Counted from the stretch's first letter, positions 1,437 through 10,928 are shown. The stretch: 64,000 nt of DNA from Alphaproteobacteria bacterium (GCA_965238305.1 CBDEHK010000001.1:1298391-1362390); one strand, 5' to 3'. A program made the numbers and translations. The notes: generated from the letters alone by a model not told the origin.

Positions 1437-2192
1437 ATGGATGATCGTAAAATGTCCAGCCCCTTCCAATTGCTCTATATTTCGCAGCTTGCCGAAGCTG
1501 CCCGCTATGATAGCTCGGTCCATGCCGACGCCGCTGACGGGCGCGACGATGGCGAATGGATGGCGACCAGGCTCAGGGAACTTGGCTTGCAGAAGCGCAT
1601 TGCCCTGACCGTAATCGATGTTTGTCAGGGCGATCCGATCCCGGATCATCGAGCTTTCGATGCCGTCATTATCGGCGGCAGCGCCCATTCGGTCCATGAA
1701 ATGCGGCAATGGCACGATCAATTGCTGACCTGGATGGCCGCTTATCGGCCAACCGGCAAGCCGCTTCTGGGAATTTGTGGTGGCCATCAACTGATGTGTC
1801 TGTGGCAGGGCCAAAAAGTGGAAAAACTAGCCGGCGGCGAATGTGCGGCAACCCTGCCGATTGAGTTGACGCCGGCCGGCCACAGTCATCCTTTATTTGA
1901 CGGCCTGCCTGATGACGTCGAATACAATTTTGGCAATTCAGAATATGTCGTTGGGGTGCCTCCGGGCGCCAGCGTCCTTGCAACTTTGGGTGAGGCCCGC
2001 TCTCTCGCCCTTGATCATGGCGGCAACTGGTATTCGATCCAGTTTCACCCGGAAATCTCCGCTGATATCATGCGCCAATTTTGGCAACATGAAAAACCAG
2101 CCAATATGGAAAACTATCGCCCGACCTTGGAAGCCCCGAAATTGTTGGCGAATTATCTCACACTTGCTGGTTTGCCCGCCTTGCCGGCTTAA
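1437..2192 (+). CDS. class I (type 1) glutamine amidotransferase-like protein
   Basis: LLGICGGHQLM (G-x-C-x-G nucleophile elbow) and IQFHPE (His/Glu of the triad). Start chosen at ATG 1437 because the ORF-track start at 1284 overlaps the convergent DksA gene. Confidence 0.75.
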   Translation: MDDRKMSSPFQLLYISQLAEAARYDSSVHADAADGRDDGEWMATRLRELGLQKRIALTVIDVCQGDPIPDHRAFDAVIIGGSAHSVHEMRQWHDQLLTWMAAYRPTGKPLLGICGGHQLMCLWQGQKVEKLAGGECAATLPIELTPAGHSHPLFDGLPDDVEYNFGNSEYVVGVPPGASVLATLGEARSLALDHGGNWYSIQFHPEISADIMRQFWQHEKPANMENYRPTLEAPKLLANYLTLAGLPALPA

Positions 2193-2342
2193 TTTTGTTT
2201 CATGTGATCGACCGTTTTTGATCGCATGGCTGATCTACTACATCCACTAAAAGAATATAAAACAAAATATAATTGCAATTTAATACAATCAATGATTTAC
2301 TGGAATTGAAGTCAAAATATACTAATACTTGGGGGGTCCGTA

Positions 2343-2978
2343 TTGCGTGTATTTTATTTATCTCGTGCAATGGCGGCGGCGCTAAGCGTTTGGACCATCC
2401 TACCCGGCTGCACGTTTGTCTACACTGACCCGATAGGAAATGATCGCATCGTTGGCTTGGCCGATGTTGAGATCACTGCCATGGACAATCCGCGCGGCAG
2501 TTTGGCCGGTCATTTAATAATTGTAAATTCGCTTGGGATGATAGTGGACACAAGTCGTGATAAATCTGGCTTTACCATTGGCTATACCAAGATAGCGATG
2601 GCCGGTTTGCAAAATTGTGCCTTATTCAACTTCGAGAGCGCACCGTCTGAATCCTCGAAGTCACAGTCGATTGAGTATGATGCCGGACTTTCGGTCGCAC
2701 GAAATCTCCCCGACAACGGCACCGGTTATTTTGGGTTGGTCAATATTACAATTCCTGGACCGGGACATGGCGGCAGTGTCGCCGGCAACCTTCTGGCGCA
2801 TGAAATAATTGGCCTTAGCATCGCTGAGCGGCCGCAAGGAACTGAGATTGTTATTGGATATTCCAGTTCAACGCTGGCGGCGATGAATAACAATGTTCTA
2901 GTCAGTCCCAATTTTGAAAACGTCGATTGCAACACGCTTGAGCCGTTAATCAGACAAGTAAAGCAGGATAAAATTTAG
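2343..2978 (+). CDS. hypothetical secreted protein / putative lipoprotein (island cargo)
   Basis: 211-aa ORF in the lower-GC region. Hydrophobic N-terminus ending ...WTILPGC, a lipobox-like LPGC. No recognisable catalytic motif. Confidence 0.5.
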   Translation: MRVFYLSRAMAAALSVWTILPGCTFVYTDPIGNDRIVGLADVEITAMDNPRGSLAGHLIIVNSLGMIVDTSRDKSGFTIGYTKIAMAGLQNCALFNFESAPSESSKSQSIEYDAGLSVARNLPDNGTGYFGLVNITIPGPGHGGSVAGNLLAHEIIGLSIAERPQGTEIVIGYSSSTLAAMNNNVLVSPNFENVDCNTLEPLIRQVKQDKI

Positions 2979-3016
2979 CGTATTGCTCGGACAACTATGA
3001 GGGTGGGTGAATTATA

Positions 3017-3937
3017 ATGAATTTCAGATATGTTTTTCTGCTGACGGTAGTTGCGGCGGCGTTATCCGCCTGTGCTAATACCGAACGTGTGCTCTTCGTG
3101 ACCTCCACACAGATTGGCATCGATGCGGATTCTAAAACACAAAGTGTAAGTATTGGCTACGACCGTTATGAGGGATATGTAGGCCCGGCCTATGAAAACG
3201 GTGGCTTACCGCCGGTGATTGCGCATTTGGAATCCAATTTGTCAGTATTCGATCCCAAAATCAGTCAGGTTTACGCCACGGGCGACGCCGCGCGATTGGC
3301 TGCCGGGCGCGGGCCAAAATGGTCCGAAAAACCGCTTTCCGGGAAAAAGAACATTACTTTTTTTGGCACCGGAACGAATTTCGGCTTGAAAGCGACATTT
3401 TCCAGTGAAGCGCCCGCCTTCAATCTAGGCTATAAACGACAAGAGTTTTCTTTAATTCCGATCGGCTCCGAAACCGAAAAAACAGAACCTGCGGTAAAAA
3501 ATACAACCGGCAAGCTCGAGGTCCCGGATCCCAAAGACCCAGACGGCAGCGAAGATATTTATCCGTCGGTCTTGGCGGCATTCGACCTGAACGTCGCGAA
3601 CAAAAGCTACGCCGGGACCGGCGCCGGCGTCAGCCAGTTTTTTGCCACCGGCGATGCCGCCGATTCTTTAGCGGTTCATCCCGATATCCGGGCGGCTTTC
3701 CAAAAGGAAGCGCGAGAGGCGATGAATATCCGTGATATCGATTGCGTCACCGGAACCGATGATGCTTCCAGCAAGATTCTGGCCTGGGTAAAATTGGATG
3801 CCAAGAACAAAAACACGTTGAAATCAATCGTTGAATCCGAATTTGGTAGCAATATCACGAATTGGGAGTTGATTAACTGCAAGGACTATGCCGACAAGCG
3901 TGCTTTGGTTCTAAAACGCCATAATTTAGCCCCATAA
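3017..3937 (+). CDS. hypothetical lipoprotein (island cargo)
   Basis: 306 aa. N-terminus MNFRYVFLLTVVAAALSAC has a canonical LSAC lipobox. Good RBS (GAGGGTGGGTGAATTATAATG). Lower GC than the surrounding genes. Confidence 0.6.
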   Translation: MNFRYVFLLTVVAAALSACANTERVLFVTSTQIGIDADSKTQSVSIGYDRYEGYVGPAYENGGLPPVIAHLESNLSVFDPKISQVYATGDAARLAAGRGPKWSEKPLSGKKNITFFGTGTNFGLKATFSSEAPAFNLGYKRQEFSLIPIGSETEKTEPAVKNTTGKLEVPDPKDPDGSEDIYPSVLAAFDLNVANKSYAGTGAGVSQFFATGDAADSLAVHPDIRAAFQKEAREAMNIRDIDCVTGTDDASSKILAWVKLDAKNKNTLKSIVESEFGSNITNWELINCKDYADKRALVLKRHNLAP

Positions 3938-3975
3938 TCTCGAAATCAAGCCAACGACCGAAATGGAGGATTATT

Positions 3976-4119
3976 ATGCCGACCGTGTCCCGTACTTTTG
4001 ATACCAGGCCGGAAGCAACGGCCTGGGTGAATGAAATCAAAGTCACAGATAATGTTGTTTCTGACAAAATCGAGCAAACACCTGATGAAAAATGGAAAGC
4101 AATCGTCGAGATAGAATGA
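3976..4119 (+). CDS. small hypothetical protein (47 aa), not in the ORF track
   Basis: ATG at 3976 preceded by AATGGAGGATTATT (a GGAGG RBS). Translation MPTVSRTFDTRPEATAWVNEIKVTDNVVSDKIEQTPDEKWKAIVEIE*. Lies between the lipoprotein gene and the hydrolase gene. Confidence 0.35.
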   Translation: MPTVSRTFDTRPEATAWVNEIKVTDNVVSDKIEQTPDEKWKAIVEIE

Positions 4120-4165
4120 TTGGTGATGGGCCTTCCTGCAAGAACTGGAATAATGGAGAAAACTG

Positions 4166-5101
4166 ATGGTAACCGACCTGCAAAAAAGTACCGCTCAGGC
4201 CATTGTCAACATTTTTGAAACCGGCAAGGCGTTGGGTGACTATGGCACGGTGACACTGCTCGCCGGCGACAGCGGTCATTTGACCTATGGCCGATCGCAA
4301 ACGACGTTGGCGAGTGGTAATCTGTTTCTGCTGATCAAAGCCTATTGCGCGGCGCCGGAGGCTGAATTCAGCCAGACGCTGGCGCCTTTCCTGGGGCGGT
4401 TGGAGGATCACGACCTATCGCTCGATCATGATGGGGTTTTTCGTGACCTGCTGCGCCGGGCGGGCGACGATACGGTTATGCATGATGTGCAGGATGGTTT
4501 TTTTGATCGCGTCTATTGGCAGCCGGCGGTTGCTTCGGCACAGCATATCGGCAGCGAAACGGCCCTTGGACAAGCCGTGATCTACGACAGCAAAATTCAT
4601 GGTTCTTGGCATCGTATGCGGGATCGTATCAATGAAAATAACGGCAGTTTAAACGATCTGGGGGAGCAAGATTGGATAGTCAAATATATTCAGACCCGAT
4701 TTGATTGGCTTTCAAATCATTCGAATAAGTTGCTTGGAAAGACTGTCTACCGGATGAAAGCGTTGCAAAAATTGTGTGACGACAATGACTGGACCCTCGA
4801 TTTACCGTTGACTGTGCGGGGCGTTTTGATTGACGAACCGATATTGTCGGGCATAATTGTCCGCGCCTCAGCGGGGGTTGCCGATGAACGCATTTTGCGG
4901 CTTCGAAACCCGATGATGCAGGGCGAAGATGTACGCGAAGTGCAGGAGGCGCTGAAAACAAAGGGTGTCGAAGTTGATGTCGATGGTGTTTTTGGGTCTG
5001 GCACTAAAGCTGCGGTGATCAGTTTCCAGCAAGCCAACAATCTGGAAGCCGACGGGATTGTCGGATCTTCGACAAGGGCCGCGCTTGGAATAGGGCTCTG
5101 A
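4166..5101 (+). CDS. glycoside hydrolase family 46 (chitosanase-fold) enzyme with a C-terminal peptidoglycan-binding domain
   Basis: The N-terminal half aligns with Streptomyces N174 chitosanase. IFETGK...AGDSGHLTYG matches the catalytic Glu/Asp region SAENSS...IGDGRGYTGG. QDGFFDRVYWQPAVASA matches NDERDRVYFDPAVSQA. ALGQAVIYDSKIHGS matches ALGQFAYYDAIVMHG. The C-terminal 60 aa (VREVQEALKTKGVEVDVDGVFGSGTKAAVISFQQANNLEADGIVGSSTRAAL) is a PG_binding_1-type repeat. No signal peptide. Confidence 0.65.
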   Translation: MVTDLQKSTAQAIVNIFETGKALGDYGTVTLLAGDSGHLTYGRSQTTLASGNLFLLIKAYCAAPEAEFSQTLAPFLGRLEDHDLSLDHDGVFRDLLRRAGDDTVMHDVQDGFFDRVYWQPAVASAQHIGSETALGQAVIYDSKIHGSWHRMRDRINENNGSLNDLGEQDWIVKYIQTRFDWLSNHSNKLLGKTVYRMKALQKLCDDNDWTLDLPLTVRGVLIDEPILSGIIVRASAGVADERILRLRNPMMQGEDVREVQEALKTKGVEVDVDGVFGSGTKAAVISFQQANNLEADGIVGSSTRAALGIGL

Positions 5102-5147
5102 TCCCCGGCTCGCGATTGAAAACCGGCCCTTCGAAGCTTTTTTAAAG

Positions 5148-5390
5148 TTGAAAACCGCCGACCGGGCGGGCAATGCTCTTGACTTTGACCTCGCTCCAAT
5201 CTTCCAGTTCGATTTCCATGCCGTCACAGATTCCAACCAGTTTCACCCGGAAATCGATCCCGAAATCATGCGCCAAAATTGGCAGCATGAAAAACCGGCC
5301 AATACGGAAAACTATCACCCGACGCCTGCCGTCCCGAAATTGCTGGCGAATTATCTGTCGTTGGCCGGCGTTAGGACGGTGGCAAGCTGA
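5148..5390 (+). pseudogene. remnant duplicate of the glutamine amidotransferase 3' end
   Basis: The 80-aa ORF ...QFHPEIDPEIMRQNWQHEKPANTENYHPTPAVPKLLANYLSLAG parallels the C-terminus of the 1437..2192 product (IQFHPEISADIMRQFWQHEKPANMENYRPTLEAPKLLANYLTLAG). Nucleotide identity is about 85-90% over roughly 170 nt (2030-2192 versus 5215-5385). Confidence 0.7.
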
Positions 5391-5437
5391 AACAAATTTA
5401 TTTGACCGCTCGTTCCAAACATGCATGATAATAACAC

Positions 5438-6049
5438 GTGCATGTATCATTTCTGCGGAGACCTTCTTTGCCCTGGGAAAAGCGCTATGACGAAACCGAC
5501 GTGCTTGAACGCGCCATGCAGGCGTTTTGGGCGCGCGGTTACGAAGCGACGTCGATGCGCGATCTGGTCGATGCGACCGGTATAAACCGGGGCAGCATTT
5601 ATACCGCCTATACCAGCAAACATGCCCTGTTCATGCAGGCCTTGCGCCATTACGACAAGATTCATCGGGCCGATTATCTGGACCGTATTGCCGATCAATA
5701 TGCACCGAAGGAGGCCATCCTCGCCGCCTTCGACGGGGCGGCTAAACAAACCGGTCGCAAAGGCGCGCCAGCCGGCTGTTTGCTGGTGAATACGGTTCTT
5801 GAACTGTCGCCGCACGACGGCGAAGCGCGGGACTTTGTTGATGGCTGCTTGAAAGCGGTGGAGGATTTTTTCTGCGCCCGGATTATCGCCGCTCAACAAC
5901 AAGGCACTATTGCCAGCCCCGTGCCGCCGCGCAAAACCGCGCAGGCGCTACTGGGTCTATTTTTGGGACTGCGTGTACTGACCCGTGGGAAACCGCACAA
6001 GGCTGCTATCGACGCCATCACATCTCAGGCCAGGATGATGTTGGAATAA
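5438..6049 (+). CDS. TetR/AcrR family transcriptional regulator
   Basis: N-terminal HTH region ...ERAMQAFWARGYEATSMRDLVDATGINRGSIYTAYTSKHALF is the TetR signature. Start codon uncertain (the ORF-track start is GTG at 5438). Confidence 0.85.
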   Translation: MHVSFLRRPSLPWEKRYDETDVLERAMQAFWARGYEATSMRDLVDATGINRGSIYTAYTSKHALFMQALRHYDKIHRADYLDRIADQYAPKEAILAAFDGAAKQTGRKGAPAGCLLVNTVLELSPHDGEARDFVDGCLKAVEDFFCARIIAAQQQGTIASPVPPRKTAQALLGLFLGLRVLTRGKPHKAAIDAITSQARMMLE

Positions 6050-6099
6050 AAAAATTTGGCTATTTTGGAACGAACGTTCAACACAAACAGGAGAGCGAT

Positions 6100-6669
6100 A
6101 TGAGTGTCTCATTAGTGGAAAGAGAACAGGCCGACGACGAAACCATAGCTTTTTACGATAAAGCCGAAGAACGGTTTCAGGCCCTGTTGAATATCTTCAA
6201 GGTGTTCGGTCATCAGCCGGAATACGGTACCGTCTTCACCGATCTGATCATGGCGGTGCTGAAAGACGGGGTGATCGATTGGCAGACCAAGGAGCTGCTG
6301 ATCCTGAAAGCGACCCAGCGCAATCAATGTCAATATTGCGTCGTCCAACACGAACGGGTCTCAAACATGCTAGGGATCACGGACGATAAAATTGCCGACC
6401 TGGATGGCGAGAAATACAAAACCAGTGCGCATTTCAGCGACGGCGAAAAGGCCCTATTGGACCTGACCGTGCAAATCGGCGAAGACGCCAACCGGGTCCC
6501 CAAAGAACTCTGGGATCGCCTGCACGCGCATTGGAATGAAGCGCAGATTGTCGATGCGGTGTTTGTCATCACCATCTACATCGCCGTCTCCAAGTTTGGC
6601 GATGCCTTGGGGGTACAATTGGAATCGATGTTCGACGGCGTCGAGCCGATCCTGCACGTCGCCCACTGA
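6100..6669 (+). CDS. carboxymuconolactone decarboxylase family (AhpD-like) protein
   Basis: 189 aa with a CQYCVVQHE motif (CxxC...H, AhpD-like). Lies downstream of the TetR gene on the same strand. Confidence 0.6.
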   Translation: MSVSLVEREQADDETIAFYDKAEERFQALLNIFKVFGHQPEYGTVFTDLIMAVLKDGVIDWQTKELLILKATQRNQCQYCVVQHERVSNMLGITDDKIADLDGEKYKTSAHFSDGEKALLDLTVQIGEDANRVPKELWDRLHAHWNEAQIVDAVFVITIYIAVSKFGDALGVQLESMFDGVEPILHVAH

Positions 6670-6799
6670 GCGGCTTGAGCAGTGCGGATTGTGCCGGGTC
6701 CGCACTGGCGTCAAGCTGGTTCCAATAGCGGCTTTAGGGGCGAGTATTTAGGCGTTCAATTAGAATAATTGGGCGATATTCCGGCGTCTTATTCCCCAT

Positions 6800-7450
6800 T
6801 CACCGGAGTGGAATTTGTAGGACTGCTTCCAGATCGGTTAGGGCCTGGGCGGCGCCGAGGACTTTGATGGTTTGCATGCCCATGGCTTTGGCCGGCTTTA
6901 AATTGATCCCGAGATCATCCAGGAAGACCACTTCCGCCGGGCTGACATCGGCCATTTCGCAGGCGATTTCATAGAAGCGTTGTTCCGGTTTACGGACCCC
7001 GACTTGGCTCGATTCCACCACATGATGGAACAGCGTCATGATCTCGGCGATCTGCGCGGCTTTCTCCGCCGAGCGGGCCATGCCCGGGCCGGCGCCGCTT
7101 CGAACATTGTTGGTCAGACAGGCAATGGTGAATTGCTGACCGACCCGGCGCAGGGCTTCGACCATTTCCGGGCGCACCTCGCCGGACAGCAATGCCAGCA
7201 CGTCGCGCCCCGGTACCCGATAGCCGAGGGCAGTGGCTTCGGCTTCAAATAGATCGCTGAAGCCGTCCGGATTGATGTCGCTGCGTTCCAGTTTGGCCCA
7301 GGCATTGTCTGCCGGATTATGGCTATTGACGGTACGGATGAAATCCATCGGCAGGCTATTTTGTTCTTCATAACGGTTGAAAGCGTCGAACGGACTGGAC
7401 AGGATGACGCCGCCGAAATCCCAGAAAACGGCCTTTATCTGATGTGTCAT
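6800..7450 (-). CDS. HAD-superfamily hydrolase (subfamily IA-like)
   Basis: N-terminal KAVFWDFGGVIL (HAD motif I, DxD/G) and C-terminal FLDDLGINLKPA (motif IV). 216 aa. Confidence 0.75.
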   Translation of the reverse strand: MTHQIKAVFWDFGGVILSSPFDAFNRYEEQNSLPMDFIRTVNSHNPADNAWAKLERSDINPDGFSDLFEAEATALGYRVPGRDVLALLSGEVRPEMVEALRRVGQQFTIACLTNNVRSGAGPGMARSAEKAAQIAEIMTLFHHVVESSQVGVRKPEQRFYEIACEMADVSPAEVVFLDDLGINLKPAKAMGMQTIKVLGAAQALTDLEAVLQIPLR

Positions 7451-7459
7451 GAAAATGGA

Positions 7460-7864
7460 CTACTCTTTATCGGTGGGTTCAAACGCAAGCGAGGCGGAAT
7501 TCATACAATATCGCAGGCCGCTCGGTTGCGGGCCGTCTTCGAAGACATGACCCAAATGGGCATCGCATTTGCTGCACAAAGCTTCGGTGCGGACCATGAA
7601 GTGGGAGCGATCGGTTTCCGTCTCCACATTGTCGCCATCGATTGGGCCCCAAAAGCTAGGCCAACCGGAACCAGACTCGAATTTTGTCTCGGACGAAAAG
7701 AGCGCCTGGCCGCAGCCGATGCAAGAAAAGACGCCGCTTCGTTTTTCGTCGTTCAGCGGTCCCGTAAAAGCCCGTTCGGTGCCTTTTTGCCGGGTAACGT
7801 AATAGGATTCCTCGCTCAATTGCTGGCGCCATTCGGCGTCCGTTTTTTGCACCTTTTCCGTCAT
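7460..7864 (-). CDS. msrB: peptide-methionine (R)-S-oxide reductase
   Basis: Product MTEKVQKTDAEWRQQLSEESYYVTRQKGTERAFTGPLNDEKRSGVFSCIGCGQALFSSETKFESGSGWPSFW...RTEALCSKCDAHLGHVFEDGP..RYC is a typical zinc-binding MsrB with 2x CxxC. Start set at ATG 7864 with RBS AGGAAG. The longer ORF-track start runs into the upstream gene. Confidence 0.9.
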   Translation of the reverse strand: MTEKVQKTDAEWRQQLSEESYYVTRQKGTERAFTGPLNDEKRSGVFSCIGCGQALFSSETKFESGSGWPSFWGPIDGDNVETETDRSHFMVRTEALCSKCDAHLGHVFEDGPQPSGLRYCMNSASLAFEPTDKE

Positions 7865-8580
7865 GATCTTCCTTTCAAGGCCGTTTGGATATTGGCCATT
7901 TGGATATCGATGTCGATATTCATGATCGACGTTATCTCCAGGTCGCGATCTTCGAAGACATGAGTTTCCAGCTTCTTCTCGCGCCAAGCCGCGATCTTAA
8001 TGTCTCTCTCCCGGATCAGCAATTCGATTTGCGGATAAAAAAACGCGACCATGGCCGTAAGCCAGCGATTGGTCGGCCAGGACGGCCAGGCATGGTCGAT
8101 TTGGAAGTGATCCAACAAGGCGATGGTATTGTCGCCAGTGAACCAATTCTCGTCCGTGACCCAGCGATTGGTGGTGAAAAGCTGTTCGGGGAAACCCTTT
8201 TTGTCCATAGAGATCGCAATTAGGTGGCAGACGATGTCATCGCCGCTTGGCCACTCGGTATCACTGTCGTTTTCGACCGGACCGGTAATATCGAGTAACC
8301 CTTCTTCGCGGATGAAGGTGTGGAAATGGCCATGTTCGCCGCTTTCCGGTCGATGCGCATGATAATAATATTGCCCGTGGGTCTCGCTATCATAGACATC
8401 GCCGTCGGGGTAATGATCCCATTCGTAAAACGTCTCGACCCGATTAATCAGTTCGTCGACCACGTTACCACTGATTTTGTGCAGGACGCGGTTGCATTCA
8501 AACACTTCTTCGCCACCCGCCTGCATTTTCCGCAAGCGCCCGGTGGAGAGGTCGGCAAAATTTATCTCACGTGTGGACAT
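7861..8580 (-). CDS. conserved hypothetical protein, His-rich, translationally coupled to msrB
   Basis: 239-aa ORF. Its stop overlaps the msrB start (ATGA). Contains the His-rich stretch YYYHAHRPESGEHGHFHTF. Family not recognised. Confidence 0.5.
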   Translation of the reverse strand: MSTREINFADLSTGRLRKMQAGGEEVFECNRVLHKISGNVVDELINRVETFYEWDHYPDGDVYDSETHGQYYYHAHRPESGEHGHFHTFIREEGLLDITGPVENDSDTEWPSGDDIVCHLIAISMDKKGFPEQLFTTNRWVTDENWFTGDNTIALLDHFQIDHAWPSWPTNRWLTAMVAFFYPQIELLIRERDIKIAAWREKKLETHVFEDRDLEITSIMNIDIDIQMANIQTALKGRS

Positions 8581-8614
8581 CGTTCATATTCTCAAATTGA
8601 GGTTTCTTGATAAC

Positions 8615-9487
8615 TTATTCCCGGACCAAGCGAAAGCCGATCAGGATATGTTTCAAATGATCTGGTCGGGAATGATGGGCGGCAGGCCGGCAGACGCCGC
8701 AACCTTTGTCGTCCCACGATCCACCCTTGACGATATGGCGGCCTTTGCCCTTTGCCGTTGCCGTCCATTCAAAAACTTGTCCAGCCGGATCGACAAGACC
8801 GTGTTGGCTGTTGCCTTTGGAGTATTGGCCGACCGGTACTGTATCGAAAGGCCCCATATCGTGGCTGTTGAGCCGGCTTGGATCATATTCATTGCCCCAG
8901 GGGAAGATTTTCCCTTCGTCACCGCGCGCGGCGCGTTCCCAGTCATCCTCGCTTGGTAGGCGCCAGTGATGGCCGGTTCGCCTGGACAACCACGCCGCGT
9001 AGGCCTGAACGTCGTCGAAGGACACCAATACAACCGGATGATCTTCCCGCCCTGCAGGCATCTGGCCATCCAACCAGGCATGCCGGCGGGTCCGCGTAAA
9101 TGGGTGGATCAGGCCATAACTTCGCCAAGTTGCCGAATCGACATTCGGTGTCGGATGGCCGGTTTGGTTGATGAATTCAGCATATTGCCGATTGGTGATG
9201 AGGGTTTGGGTAATCGCATAGGCTTTACCTTGGCGTTCAGATAGGGGCGGTTCGTCTTCGTACCATTTCTGTTGCCGGGTCACGCTATGGCCGTAGGCGG
9301 CTTCATCCAGCATATAGGCCAGTTCTTTTTCGGCGCGGTTTGAACCGATGAAATAGGATCCAGCTGGAATGTGAATAACTTCAGGTGCAGCGAGATCGCT
9401 TGCGAAGGTCGGTTGGCCCACAAATATCGCCGCCAGCACCGGCAAAATACCAATTGTTCCGATTTTACATCTGATTTTCTGCATCAC
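8615..9487 (-). CDS. formylglycine-generating enzyme (FGE/SUMF1) family protein, secreted
   Basis: Signal peptide (MMQKIRCKIGTIGILPVLAAIFVGQPTFA). FGE-sulfatase domain hallmarks are RVIRGGSW-like GGSWDD, HPVVLVSFDDVQAYAAWL, WRLPSEDDWERAARG and FPWGNEY. Confidence 0.8.
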   Translation of the reverse strand: MMQKIRCKIGTIGILPVLAAIFVGQPTFASDLAAPEVIHIPAGSYFIGSNRAEKELAYMLDEAAYGHSVTRQQKWYEDEPPLSERQGKAYAITQTLITNRQYAEFINQTGHPTPNVDSATWRSYGLIHPFTRTRRHAWLDGQMPAGREDHPVVLVSFDDVQAYAAWLSRRTGHHWRLPSEDDWERAARGDEGKIFPWGNEYDPSRLNSHDMGPFDTVPVGQYSKGNSQHGLVDPAGQVFEWTATAKGKGRHIVKGGSWDDKGCGVCRPAAHHSRPDHLKHILIGFRLVRE

Positions 9488-9629
9488 CCTCAGGTAAGTC
9501 GAAAATCCCCAAATAGAAAGGCCAATTGCGTCGAATCACATAATGGTGAGCCATTGTTACTAGTCTCCGTGATCAGAGGCGTCCACATTGGGTCCGGGAA
9601 CATCAACAATCAAATTGAGGAGGCACCTC

Positions 9630-10928
9630 ATGTACGCTCAAAAGAGCAAACTATTATCATCGACAGTCATTCCGTTGGTCGCCGTGGCGGCGTTGTCATC
9701 GGCTGGCGTCATTACCATGGCAAATATCAGTTTCGCGGCCAGCAGCGCGATACCCAACAACCCAACCGCGGTATCACGCCCGGCAACGCCAGACGGATCG
9801 TACCAGGTCGCAGCCTGTACCGCCAAGAAAGCGTGTAATCCGTGCGCGACCAAAAAGAAAGGCTGTAATCCTTGCAACCCCTGTGGGGCAAAAAAAGCCT
9901 GCAACCCATGCAATCCTTGCGCGACCAAGAAAGCCTGCAATCCTTGTAACCCTTGCGGTGCGAAAAAAGCTTGTGGCGCCTGCAATCCATGCAATCCGTG
10001 CGGTGGTGCATCTGCTGCGGGGTTATCACAAAAATGCATGGTGCCGCGGTTGATGAAGGCATCGCTTTGCAATCCTTGCAATCCTTGTGCGGCGAAAAAG
10101 GCCTGCAGTCCTTGCGGCGCAAAAAAAGCCTGCAATCCGTGCGCAACCAAGAAAGCTTGCAATCCTTGCGCAACGAAGAAAGCTTGCAACCCTTGTGCAA
10201 CCAAGAAAGCCTGCGGAGCTTGCAATCCCTGTGGCGCCAAGAAAGCCTGCGGAGCTTGTAATCCTTGCGCAACCAAAAAAGCCTGCAATCCATGCAATCC
10301 CTGTGGCGCCAAGAAAGCTTGTGGAACCTGCAATCCTTGCGCAACCAAAAAAGCCTGCAATCCATGCAATCCCTGTGGCGCCAAGAAAGCTTGCGGAGCC
10401 TGCAGTCCTTGTGGCGGCGCGGCGGCACCTGAATTAACCGCGGCAGAAGCCAATTCGGTTTATGACTGCTTGAAAGCCGATATGGTCAAAGGTTATGCAA
10501 AATCAGGACTGAAAGACGCCAAACATTATGCCGATTGGGACGGTTATTCGACGCAGCCTTATGTTTCCGACACCCATGGCGGCCGCTATGTGTTCAATCG
10601 TGGGAATGCGCAGGCCAAATCTTACGGCAAATATGAAGCGGCCGGCCGCATGCCGGTCGGTGCAAAATTGGCGAAAGACAGCTTTGTCGTCAAAACCAAC
10701 GGTAAAGTGGGCTCCGGGCCGCTCTTTATTATGGAAAAAATGGCCAAGGGCTTCAGTAAGGCAAGCGATAATTGGCGGTACACGATGGTGATGCCGAACG
10801 GTCAATTGTTCGGGATGACCAACGGCAAGAATTCTGCCGGAATGAAATTCTGTTATGAATGCCATGCCACTGTTGCGGAAGGCCAAGATAGTCTGATGTT
10901 CCTACCGGACGATTATCGGGTCAATTAG
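9630..10928 (+). CDS. secreted Cys-repeat protein fused to a cytochrome P460-like c-type haem domain
   Basis: ATG 9630 follows a GAGGAGG RBS. Signal peptide, then about 210 aa of tandem KKACNPC(NPC)(G/A)(A/T) repeats with over 60 Cys, mostly as CxPC pairs. The C-terminal roughly 160 aa carry a single CXXCH (FCYECHAT) near the C-terminus and resemble the cytochrome P460 / c'-beta family. Confidence 0.6.
   Translation: MYAQKSKLLSSTVIPLVAVAALSSAGVITMANISFAASSAIPNNPTAVSRPATPDGSYQVAACTAKKACNPCATKKKGCNPCNPCGAKKACNPCNPCATKKACNPCNPCGAKKACGACNPCNPCGGASAAGLSQKCMVPRLMKASLCNPCNPCAAKKACSPCGAKKACNPCATKKACNPCATKKACNPCATKKACGACNPCGAKKACGACNPCATKKACNPCNPCGAKKACGTCNPCATKKACNPCNPCGAKKACGACSPCGGAAAPELTAAEANSVYDCLKADMVKGYAKSGLKDAKHYADWDGYSTQPYVSDTHGGRYVFNRGNAQAKSYGKYEAAGRMPVGAKLAKDSFVVKTNGKVGSGPLFIMEKMAKGFSKASDNWRYTMVMPNGQLFGMTNGKNSAGMKFCYECHATVAEGQDSLMFLPDDYRVN
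9820..10430. repeat. in-frame coding tandem repeats with 27-nt (AAAGCCTGCAATCCTTGCGCAACCAAG-like) and 36-nt units
   Basis: Near-identical units recur roughly 25 times in the sequence. They cause long spurious stop-free antisense ORFs (9638..10453, 9727..10428, 10087..10437, 9953..10261). Confidence 0.85.

Follow-up and report, generated by a model that had tools for sequence, protein, structure and literature searches.

A candidate GH46 cluster E murein glycosidase encoded behind a conserved lipoprotein module in a horizontally acquired island

The DNA analyzed here is a single stretch of 64,000 nucleotides (the window), in which four co-oriented genes occupy positions 2343–5101 on the + strand, separated by gaps of 38, 38 and 46 nt. 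The first ORF (2343–2978) encodes lipoprotein A; its likely start is the ATG at 2370, which is also the start in public annotation and gives a protein of 202 aa. It is followed by the gene for lipoprotein B (3017–3937, 306 aa), by a 47-aa ORF with a GGAGG ribosome-binding site (orf47, 3976–4119), and by a gene for a 311-aa protein (4166–5101) that comprises a GH46 domain (nt 4205–4810) and a peptidoglycan-binding (PGB) domain (nt 4919–5086). All four ORFs had been proposed in an initial annotation and were found on the expected strand at the coordinates it gave; the motifs it had quoted from the enzyme (IFETGK, AGDSGHLTYG, RVYWQPAV and ALGQAVIYDS..HG) are likewise present in the translation.

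The region had also been described as an island, a view borne out by its composition and boundaries. G+C is 0.45–0.52 in the island versus 0.54–0.60 in the flanks, and a 127-nt direct repeat (83% identity, spacing 3198) brackets it. Copy 1 (2032–2158) is the 3′ end of an intact gene for a class I glutamine amidotransferase (GATase; 1284–2192, + strand; PF00117, E 5.9e-15; NCBIfam PRK09065, E 8.8e-34, which is below that model's cutoff), the insertion target. Copy 2 (5230–5356) is contained in a displaced GATase 3′ fragment at the right end of the island (5230–5390, + strand), the translation of which (...QFHPEIDPEIMRQNWQHEKPANTENYHP...LLANYLSLAG) resembles the C-terminus of the intact GATase. 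The same 3.2-kb unit sits in another genome, in other surroundings (sister island L099). The common block spans window positions 1969–5158 in three blastn segments of 81–92% identity and includes the last ~224 nt of the GATase gene (1969–2192). Within it, L099 positions 7417–8620 match window positions 1969–3176 at 86% identity, and the displaced GATase fragment matches L099 7479–7553 at 87%. Beyond this block, blastn detected no match between L099 and the rest of the 64-kb window. We regard the block 1969–5158 as horizontally acquired, and the enzyme gene, the fourth gene of the acquired block, is part of neither a prophage nor a secretion-system locus.

Neighboring genes to ~15 kb encode a DksA/TraR-type protein, the class I GATase, TetR, CMD, HAD, MsrB, DUF6969, FGE-sulfatase, DsbA and acyl-CoA dehydrogenases. 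From the window start, which leaves only 2.3 kb to the left of the island, to ~15 kb, there are no phage or T6SS genes, in agreement with the original observation that VgrG, PAAR, holin and phage structural genes are missing nearby. Genes for VgrG, PAAR, Hcp and adaptors are all lacking within these 15 kb of the window, which also contains no holin, no spanin, no small ORF with a transmembrane (TM) segment and no PHROG match except to the PGB domain.

Both proposed domains of the enzyme scored above their Pfam gathering thresholds. Glyco_hydro_46 (PF01374; E 2e-15, 57.4 bits against a threshold of 27) matches residues 14–215 and covers profile positions 3–210 of 210, while PG_binding_1 (PF01471; E 4e-18, 65.7 bits against 23) matches residues 252–307; the linker between the two is disordered at residues 230–249. 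Comparison with the Bacillus subtilis chitosanase CsnMY002 (PDB 7c6c) gave an E-value of 1.4e-17 for the enzyme itself and of 3.7e-26 for the family profile. In the AlphaFold2 model (pLDDT 85.6), the enzyme is predicted to adopt the two-lobed, mostly helical, lysozyme-like GH46 fold, and its nine best PDB matches are GH46 chitosanases (Foldseek E ~1e-10, target TM 0.71–0.82, 27–28% identity). The enzyme had been noted as leaderless behind two exported lipoproteins, and this applies to its family: neither a signal peptide nor a hydrophobic segment is found in any of 24 aligned members. All 24 begin straight at the GH46 domain (M-x-T-D/E-L-Q-K), the window protein starting three residues before it, and no export route for the enzyme is evident.

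We then mapped the residues of the window protein onto Table 1 of Viens, Lacombe-Harvey & Brzezinski (2015, Mar Drugs 13:6566; PMC4663542). Glu18, Asp35 and Thr40, together with Asp141, Arg178 and Arg196, are invariant in the 24 aligned members and correspond to the acid, base, Thr and Arg-Asp-Arg network of GH46. Glu18 (codon 4217–4219) aligns with Glu19 of CsnMY002, the residue mutated in structure 7c6d, and is invariant in both the 24-member and the viral-homolog alignments. The assignment of Asp35 (codon 4268–4270) as the base rests on its D-x4-T spacing to Thr40, identical to that of Asp40 and Thr45 in CsnN174, because HMMER places the loop gap one residue off. Two other positions differ. 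The equivalent of CsnN174 Arg42 is an invariant Gly37 within the family motif G-D-x-G-H-L-T-Y-G, and the equivalent of the −2 subsite Asp57 of CsnN174 is Asn52 within the motif S-G-N-L, again invariant in the 24 members.

According to this GH46 review (PMC4663542), Arg, the base Asp and Thr are strictly conserved in GH46 chitosanases of confirmed activity, with one exception. Strict conservation also applies to the −2 Asp, which binds the free amine of GlcN, in clusters A–D, not in cluster E. The review reports that clusters A, B and D consist in their great majority of proteins with a signal peptide, and describes cluster E as unassayed multimodular GH46 'peptidoglycan-binding proteins' with a proposed role in cell-wall metabolism. 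The window protein fits every trait stated there for cluster E: it has the catalytic set and a PG-binding module and is without the −2 Asp, and on sequence grounds we assign it to this cluster. In the literature searched, we found no characterization of cluster E after 2015.

The secreted chitosanases CsnN174, CsnMY002 (7c6c), OU01 (4olt) and MH-K1 (1qgi) have the same fold, acid, base and Thr residues, and Arg-Asp-Arg network. Unlike them, the window enzyme has three traits of proven chitosanases missing (the Arg two residues past the base Asp, the −2 Asp and a Sec/Tat signal peptide), carries a C-terminal PG_binding_1 domain and is likely to act on murein rather than chitosan. We infer that the substrate is probably acetylated peptidoglycan; a de-N-acetylated glycan, as suggested initially, fits poorly with the Asp-to-Asn change at the amine-reading position.

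Relatives of the enzyme are also found on viral contigs, where they occupy lysis positions. In the four full-length ones that were aligned (36–48% identity), the −2 Asp is absent without exception, with SGN, SGG or SGS in its place, and two of the four keep the GDxGHL motif. On one viral contig (L084), the order is replication genes, Ant, GH46-PGB, a 2-TM holin, an i-spanin, an overlapping lipoprotein o-spanin and terminase; on another (L085), tail genes, GH46-PGB and a 2-TM holin-like protein are followed by an integrase. Moreover, PhaLP lists GH46 in 10 phage lytic proteins, and phage GH46-fold proteins are present in BFVD. To judge from such gene contexts, the more distant family members are phage endolysins.

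Modular endolysins of Gram-negative phages, such as phiKZ gp144 (3bkh) and the Burkholderia AP3 endolysin (5nm7), likewise are leaderless and combine a lysozyme-superfamily domain with PG_binding_1. The window PGB domain matches endolysin structures of this type with E-values of 1e-9 to 1e-12, and the resemblance extends to the holin/spanin cassettes in which relatives of the enzyme reside. The enzyme differs from these endolysins in having a GH46 domain for catalysis where they use GH19, GH24, GH108 or a lytic transglycosylase, in the C-terminal position of its PGB domain, and in its chromosomal gene, located behind a lipoprotein operon without holin, spanin or phage gene. The link to phage lysis that had been raised thus holds for the viral-contig homologs, L084 providing a full cassette, and does not extend to the window or to the bacterial copies. 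A lysis cassette at this locus was rejected, holin and spanin being absent in the window and beside bacterial copies, where no enrichment of holins was seen.

Most bacterial copies of the enzyme gene, about 85 loci with 54–70% identity, are solitary, having neither the lipoprotein module nor any other conserved neighbor. VgrG, PAAR, Hcp, DUF4123, DUF1795 and Rhs are all absent from the annotated homolog contexts, and none of them occurs in two or more members among 137 immediate neighbors searched with Pfam. In the survey of homolog neighborhoods proposed at the outset, VgrG and PAAR genes did not appear, and phage genes were seen around viral-contig homologs. Neither of the outcomes named beforehand as counting against the initial interpretation, a lack of significant GH46 or PG-binding matches or homologs consistently encoded as secreted chitosanases without linked lipoproteins, was observed. 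One solitary homolog (L001) adjoins genes for a cI-type repressor, DUF1376 and a DnaA_C-domain protein, and in L003 and L182 a DUF2235 (Tle1-like) domain is encoded close to the enzyme gene. The family is represented in Cyanobacteria, Nitrospirota and Desulfobacterota.

Next, we turned to the three genes upstream. The lipoboxes are ILPGC|T in lipoprotein A and ALSAC|A in lipoprotein B, and the Cys is invariant in both families. Lipoprotein A, for which exhaustive phmmer searches returned 59 relatives, is a tandem duplicate of a ~75-aa domain that is usually single, in lipoproteins of 100–125 aa; many relatives of ~110 aa match one half of it (residues 10–95 or 130–190). Lipoprotein B is β-rich in its N-terminal part, where two YATGDAA/FATGDAA motifs occur, and helical in its C-terminal part. 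Its structure model, of moderate confidence, offered no functional clue, and none of its relatives was found on a viral contig. The orf47 product is hydrophilic, has neither a signal peptide nor a transmembrane segment, and is 60–70% identical to proteins encoded at the equivalent position in L096, L097 and L099. The two lipoproteins and the mini-ORF have no match in Pfam, NCBIfam, PHROG, PADLOC or PDB.

This triad recurs. In 62 of 84 loci, the gene for lipoprotein A precedes that for lipoprotein B, and a small signal-less ORF lies downstream of lipoprotein B in essentially all loci with sufficient sequence; in 53 loci, this ORF belongs to one of four sequence clusters. As far as their sequences indicate, the two lipoproteins and the mini-protein are a separate conserved envelope module present at more than 60 loci. 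The enzyme is present in only two of the 84 module loci fetched, 42 of which had at least 1.2 kb of downstream sequence. In L096, the triad is bracketed by a direct repeat, at least 668 nt long, of the neighboring PALP gene, the first 300 nt being identical.

How, then, are the enzyme and the module related? The lipoprotein pair adjoins the enzyme in the window, L099, L119, L180/L181 and L182, and is absent from the ~85 other enzyme loci. L099 has the same four genes in another genomic setting. In Betaproteobacteria (L119; L180/L181, Variovorax; L182, Noviherbaspirillum), the genes for lipoproteins A and B are followed by a fused gene, in which an N-terminal domain with four cysteines (C4) precedes GH46 and PGB. 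In L180 and L182, 10–11 nt separate the fused gene from the gene before it; in L180, the two lipoprotein genes themselves overlap by 4 nt. This gene order is kept although lipoprotein B is 35–37% and the enzyme 45–51% identical to those of the window. With the 386-aa fused protein as query, a clear majority of the 120 best clusters covered at least 96% of its length.

In the fused N-terminal domain, which has no Pfam match, each of the four cysteines (C11, C14, C31 and C41) shows at least 90% conservation. When 17,936 ORFs were searched with a profile HMM of the C4 mini-protein, one of the small-ORF types of the module, the N-terminus of the L119 enzyme was the next-best hit after the true members, with the four Cys in register and a marginal score (E 0.013, 15 bits). 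In L099, the same HMM detected a degenerate 35-aa C4 remnant (E 1.7e-6) in the interval that separates orf47 from the enzyme gene. In the window, this interval is just 46 nt long and a C4 element is absent, and hhalign gave a probability below 1% for homology between the orf47 and C4 types.

Because the gene order recurs across distant lineages and is accompanied by the C4 fusion in Betaproteobacteria, the enzyme and the module probably work together. These sequence comparisons support the view that the enzyme is functionally connected with the lipoproteins, and the association noted at first for the window reappears in L099 and, in fused form, in Betaproteobacteria. On the other hand, with ~85 enzyme loci lacking the module and only two of 84 modules having the enzyme, the enzyme would be at best an optional component. 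A pairing that recurs in this way, and that has become a gene fusion in one group, points to a cell-envelope system not described before.

On balance, we lean towards a reading in which a cluster E murein glycosidase works with an independently conserved lipoprotein/mini-protein envelope module. Catalysis would rely on the inverting set, with Glu18 as the acid, Asp35 as the base and Thr40 positioning the water, and neither of the two residues by which true chitosanases are suited to glucosamine polymers is retained. The flexible linker ties the catalytic domain to PG_binding_1, which would anchor the enzyme on the sacculus. The enzyme is made without an export signal, like phage endolysins; the exported lipoproteins A and B, on the periplasmic side, could be partners that dock, restrain or neutralize it. 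The mini-protein or C4 domain may couple the cytoplasmically made enzyme to the lipoproteins. A broader proposal, which we put forward as distinctly tentative, is that lipoproteins A and B and the mini-protein represent an undescribed, widespread envelope system that in some lineages recruits a cytoplasmically made murein glycosidase, the two being covalently fused in Betaproteobacteria through a zinc-ribbon-like C4 domain. If true, this would mean either a new holin-independent, endolysin-type route to the cell wall, serving controlled autolysis or vesicle or cargo release, or, alternatively, a new toxin/immunity arrangement that is independent of secretion systems.

Among the other explanations, the one that survives best, although we consider it unlikely, had in outline already been suggested for this locus: an interbacterial effector, delivered by contact-dependent or type VI machinery whose genes lie elsewhere, with lipoproteins A and B protecting the periplasm of the producer, the mini-protein or C4 domain as a loading adaptor and the enzyme-less modules as orphan immunity. 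A leaderless PG hydrolase directly behind exported lipoproteins, in conserved order, in a mobile island of low G+C, fits this idea, as do the DUF2235 genes of L003 and L182, and immunity genes often occur without their effector. There is also a precedent in VgrG3, a Vibrio cholerae T6SS effector described in the literature as chitosanase-like; its C-terminal domain, a PG-degrading chitosanase/lysozyme-like glycosidase, is paired with the periplasmic protective protein TsiV3 (4noo, 4nso). However, the fold match between VgrG3 and the enzyme model is weak (4noo_A, E 0.028, query TM 0.42), and VgrG3 is fused to a T6SS spike in a T6SS cluster, whereas spike, PAAR and adaptor are absent here and, like Hcp and Rhs, from the homolog contexts. 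The N-terminus of the enzyme has no known loading domain, and no gene that might confer immunity accompanies the ~85 enzyme genes without a conserved neighbor. Family members are found in Cyanobacteria, Nitrospirota and Desulfobacterota, phyla in which T6SS is uncommon. Moreover, the module is mostly without the enzyme and always with the small signal-less protein, and therefore fits poorly to a dedicated immunity pair.

A chance juxtaposition, in which the triad and a solitary cluster E gene entered one insertion hotspot and are functionally independent, is disfavored and, in our view, improbable. Each unit is indeed far commoner alone, and both take variable, island-like positions, the repeat-bracketed triad of L096 being an example. 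Yet the order is the same in lineages with strongly diverged proteins, the genes are tightly packed in L180 and L182, and the Betaproteobacterial enzyme carries a C4 domain resembling the module mini-protein of that position.

We hold a decaying prophage remnant, composed of an endolysin and 'moron' lipoprotein genes with no present function, to be quite improbable as well. The family does include phage endolysins, the region has an island signature, and the L001 homolog lies beside the genes for the cI-type repressor, DUF1376 and the DnaA_C-domain protein. Against this, phage genes, holins and spanins are absent from the window, none of the four ORFs is disrupted, and the catalytic residues do not vary in the 24 aligned members or across hundreds of bacterial copies; lipoprotein B relatives are absent from viral contigs, and holins are not enriched beside bacterial copies. 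Finally, although the Pfam GH46 match is significant and public annotation names many family members 'chitosanase', an ordinary nutritional or protective chitosanase is very unlikely, just as the initial annotation had argued, because the family has no signal peptide, in contrast to the great majority of clusters A, B and D, Gly37 stands in place of the Arg beside the base and Asn52 in place of the −2 Asp, and the GH46 domain is joined to one that binds peptidoglycan.

GH46 has been regarded as a pure chitosanase family. Phage-cassette relatives, the loss of glucosamine-reading residues and the PG-binding module together suggest that cluster E is a peptidoglycan-directed, endolysin-type branch, a divergence that would parallel the split of GH19 into chitinases and endolysins. 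Relative to the description of cluster E in the available part of PMC4663542, the phage lysis-cassette context, the solitary bacterial copies, and the coupling and fusion to the lipoprotein/mini-protein module are added here. It is puzzling that hundreds of bacteria retain a holin-less, leaderless wall hydrolase and that a subset couples or fuses it to the module. The lipoprotein operon is a compact target that could bring to light a new way of controlling or exporting autolysins, or a new antibacterial toxin/immunity system, and homologs of the module are present in the cultivable genera Variovorax, Roseateles and Noviherbaspirillum.

The island block comprises four co-oriented forward-strand ORFs (window 2343–5101) separated by gaps of 38, 38 and 46 nt. 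They encode lipoprotein A (2343/2370–2978; 211 or 202 aa, depending on the start chosen), lipoprotein B (3017–3937; 306 aa), the 47-aa mini-protein orf47 (3976–4119) and a 311-aa enzyme (4166–5101). A purine-rich ribosome-binding site precedes the ORFs at 3017, 3976 and 4166, those whose upstream sequence was inspected; promoter and terminator scans gave output at chance level. The initial annotation had read the enzyme as a GH46 domain joined to PG_binding_1, and a Pfam search bore this out, with Glyco_hydro_46 (residues 14–215, E = 2e-15) and PG_binding_1 (residues 252–307, E = 4e-18) both above threshold. The whole catalytic domain aligns with the Bacillus subtilis chitosanase CsnMY002 (7c6c) at E = 1.4e-17, or 3.7e-26 with the family profile. 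Moreover, the closest PDB folds to the AlphaFold2 model (pLDDT 85.6, disordered linker at residues 230–249) are GH46 chitosanases (E ~1e-10, target TM ~0.8).

We placed the key residues from Table 1 of a GH46 review (PMC4663542) on the enzyme alignments. E18 (general acid), D35 (general base), T40 (the Thr that positions the water) and R178, D141 and R196, which form the Arg-Asp-Arg network, are all retained and invariant. Two other positions are replaced, invariantly across 24 diverse family members: Gly37 stands where chitosanases have an Arg two residues past the base, and Asn52 takes the place of the −2 subsite Asp. According to the review's treatment of these positions, the Arg, the base Asp and the Thr are strictly conserved, with one exception, in chitosanases of confirmed activity, and the −2 Asp binds the amino group of glucosamine (PMC4663542). 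Cleavage of de-N-acetylated glycan, as suggested earlier, is at odds with the loss of this amine-reading Asp. For cluster E, the same review describes multimodular 'peptidoglycan-binding proteins' that lack the −2 Asp, gives no reported activity in its account of them, and raises a possible part in cell-wall metabolism (PMC4663542). Because these traits equal those of our enzyme, its sequence assigns it to cluster E, a known but uncharacterised GH46 branch. A role as a nutritional chitosanase is very unlikely.

The enzyme family is large, with more than 1,688 homologs. At 54–70% identity they occur in at least 433 GTDB species genomes, spanning Alpha- and Gammaproteobacteria, Desulfobacterota, Acidobacteriota, Nitrospirota, Myxococcota and Cyanobacteria. 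The 24 aligned members begin directly at the catalytic domain and none has a signal peptide, so that the leaderless state already pointed out for this protein holds family-wide in the alignment. Six longer alpha-, gamma- and cyanobacterial members (355–480 aa) were inspected; all have extra C-terminal sequence, consisting of PG-binding repeats in five, and none has an N-terminal domain. Two to three C-terminal PG_binding_1 repeats, not one, were also seen in P0004, P0006, P0025, P0036, P0039, P0041, P0042 and P0069, homologs of 381–494 aa from cyanobacteria and other groups.

We clustered five genes on each side of the enzyme homolog in ~75 loci and found no conserved neighbour, the biggest non-self cluster having six members in four loci. 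A Pfam scan of 137 immediate neighbours returned 144 different families, the commonest with five members, and there was no T6SS or phage family among those matched by at least two of these neighbours. Annotated homolog contexts consist of ordinary chromosomal genes, plus one prophage-like regulatory region and one mobile-element region. Lipoproteins A and B and the 47-aa ORF of the window were absent from all solitary-enzyme loci examined. These many solitary copies fit poorly with a T6SS effector guarded by lipoprotein immunity proteins, as does a cytoplasmic third component, even though the fold has a precedent in VgrG3 of Vibrio cholerae, whose peptidoglycan-degrading domain (4noo_A) matches the enzyme model weakly (E = 0.028). 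To 15 kb, the neighbours in the window are ordinary genes; they encode a DksA/TraR-type protein, TetR, CMD, HAD, MsrB, DUF6969, FGE-sulfatase, DsbA and acyl-CoA dehydrogenases. None of them is a phage or type VI gene, in agreement with the initial annotation, which had noted no VgrG, PAAR, holin or phage structural gene nearby. Its proposal of a contact-dependent or type VI effector/immunity module gained no positive support from the contexts covered and is the less likely reading, though a delivery system encoded elsewhere in the genome would be compatible with it.

Relatives of the enzyme are present on six IMG/VR viral contigs at 36–48% identity. The −2 Asp is absent from all four aligned full-length viral relatives, and two of the four keep the GDxGHL motif. 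On one contig (L084), the GH46 gene lies between replication/Ant genes and the terminase, and is followed by genes for a 90-aa two-TM protein (holin), a 90-aa N-terminal-TM protein, interpreted as an i-spanin, and, overlapping it, a lipoprotein of 87 aa (o-spanin). On another (L085), tail genes are followed by the GH46 gene, a 73-aa two-TM protein and an integrase. Moreover, PhaLP lists GH46 in 10 phage lytic proteins, and BFVD includes phage proteins of GH46 fold. The phage link rests on these three sources, because a tblastn search of 50,697 GenBank records of cultured phages matched the PG-binding domain only. Judged by sequence and gene context, the phage relatives are predicted endolysins. 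Such a kinship might suggest that the island itself is a lysis cassette or a prophage remnant, and a phage lysis module had been among the early proposals. This explanation fails, since the locus has no holin, spanin or any phage gene, and the island genes are intact and conserved. Beside bacterial homologs, small TM proteins occur at background frequency only (e.g. CcmE, TatA), with no enrichment of holins.

Next to the enzyme stands a module of lipoprotein A, lipoprotein B and a mini-protein. Searches of Pfam, NCBIfam, PHROGs, PADLOC and PDB sequences gave no match for any of the three, and the PADLOC defence models matched none of the four island proteins. Lipoprotein B has 192 homologs, none of them with a Pfam domain, and no relatives were found on viral contigs. 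Its model (pLDDT 74.7) combines a beta-rich N-terminal half-structure with a helical C-terminal one, and no structural neighbour reached significance. We surveyed 84 lipoprotein B loci, four obtained by exact protein look-ups and 80 by a metagenome scan. The lipoprotein A gene is directly upstream of B in 62 of them, usually encoding 100–125 aa. In the window's lipoprotein A, a domain present once in nearly all relatives is internally duplicated in tandem; for instance, a 105-aa Variovorax protein matches both of its halves. Directly downstream of B, essentially all loci with sequence there have a small hydrophilic ORF (47–76 aa), assignable to one of four sequence clusters in 53 loci. The orf47 type recurs in L096, L097 and L099 at 60–70% identity. 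Since hhalign probabilities between the four mini-protein types are below 1%, we do not claim homology between orf47 and the C4-type, a type named for its four cysteines.

The enzyme is an optional part of this module, present in only two of the 84 fetched loci, 42 of which extend for 1.2 kb or more downstream. One informative case is a Roseateles-like contig (L119), whose lipoprotein B and enzyme are 35% and 47% identical to the window proteins. Here a small lipoprotein A is followed by B and then by a 386-aa ORF, in which a ~45-aa four-cysteine segment and an Ala/Pro-rich linker precede GH46–PGB. Among the 120 best database clusters, well over half align to 96% or more of this fused query, with fused genes in Roseateles, Variovorax, Azohydromonas, Thauera and Noviherbaspirillum; conservation at the four Cys is at least 90%. 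Two further contexts were examined, one in Variovorax (L180/L181) and one in Noviherbaspirillum (L182); in both, the genes for lipoproteins A and B come immediately before the fused one. It is separated from them by 10–11 nt (L180, L182), and the A and B genes of L180 overlap by 4 nt. With a profile HMM of C4-type mini-proteins, the L119 N-terminus ranks next below the true members with its four Cys in register, a marginal match (E = 0.013 among 17,936 ORFs). In L099, a related island in another genome, the same HMM picks out a degenerate remnant of 35 aa in the interval from orf47 to the enzyme gene (E = 1.7e-6); this segment is deleted in the window. The order conserved across distant lineages and the fusion of the enzyme to a module-like C4 domain argue, at the sequence level, for functional coupling of enzyme and module, and both contradict chance co-location.

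The best-supported reading is therefore an endolysin-type murein glycosidase working with an uncharacterised lipoprotein/mini-protein module. The enzyme would be an inverting hydrolase anchored via its PG-binding module. Made in the cytoplasm, it would act together with an envelope module, made up of a pair of exported lipoproteins and one small protein of the cytoplasm, which could dock, restrain or neutralise it. The enzyme family itself was flagged in 2015, as cluster E in the review's classification (PMC4663542). The endolysin context of the family, the lipoprotein/mini-protein module, and the enzyme–module coupling and fusion are new here; our literature search found no published description of any of them.

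The island block also differs from its surroundings in composition (G+C 0.45–0.52 vs 0.54–0.60 outside). On its left is an intact class I glutamine amidotransferase (GATase) gene (1284–2192) and on its right a displaced copy of the last ~40 GATase codons (5230–5390). The two 3′ copies form a 127-nt direct repeat of 83% identity (2032–2158, 5230–5356). A triad copy in L096, unrelated to the window island, likewise lies between direct repeats derived from the 3′ portion of its host-gene neighbour, here a PALP-family gene (6465–7132 and 9717–10384; in register over at least 668 nt, of which the first 300 are identical). Such repeats are the footprint either of a circular intermediate integrated via a single crossover or of an integrase aiming at gene 3′ ends. 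No recombinase gene was found within either island. L099 shares the block, GATase 3′ fragment included, at 81–92% nucleotide identity; its surroundings are entirely unlike the window's, and outside the block it has no match in the 64-kb window. In L099, an IS3-family element (rve + HTH_Tnp_1; 8758–9890) interrupts lipoprotein B, and a gene for a Xer-like tyrosine recombinase (5794–6717) precedes the GATase fragment, which marks the left end of the island, by ~0.6 kb. This recombinase falls short of the cutoffs for XerC and XerD and nothing in the window corresponds to it, so it gives no basis for assigning an integration mechanism. Flanking repeats are not general to solitary GH46 genes, since only a few loci had them when the sequences upstream and downstream were compared by blastn (L012, L056 and others); the loci checked had no tRNA genes.

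Several minor observations concern neighbouring genes. A DUF3616 gene recurs downstream of GH46-like genes, at a distance of one to three genes, in Noviherbaspirillum and on megaplasmids of Rhizobium and Microvirga (L182 8243–9298, L183 8597–9562, L184 10547–11683). On the Rhizobium plasmid it is accompanied by L,D-transpeptidase-family and caspase-family genes, and in Microvirga it adjoins PBP1C and alpha-2-macroglobulin. This setting may represent a second wall-related neighbourhood for distant GH46 members. DUF2235 (T6SS_Tle1-like catalytic) genes occur a few genes from the enzyme in two otherwise unrelated loci (L003 6511–8439, alongside an Endonuclease_NS gene, and L182 9678–10877), a weak hint of a toxin-island context or a coincidence. 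In the window, an 18-nt inverted repeat, 89% complementary, lies on both sides of the TetR-family gene at 5438–6049 (5402–5419, TTGACCGCTCGTTCCAAA; 6064–6081, TTTGGAACGAACGTTCAA); its arms may serve as operators in divergent or downstream control. Finally, the longest reverse-strand ORFs of MsrB (SelR) and of the DUF6969 protein (7460–7987 and 7861–8580) overlap by 127 nt, and translation of MsrB probably begins further downstream than the first in-frame start codon.
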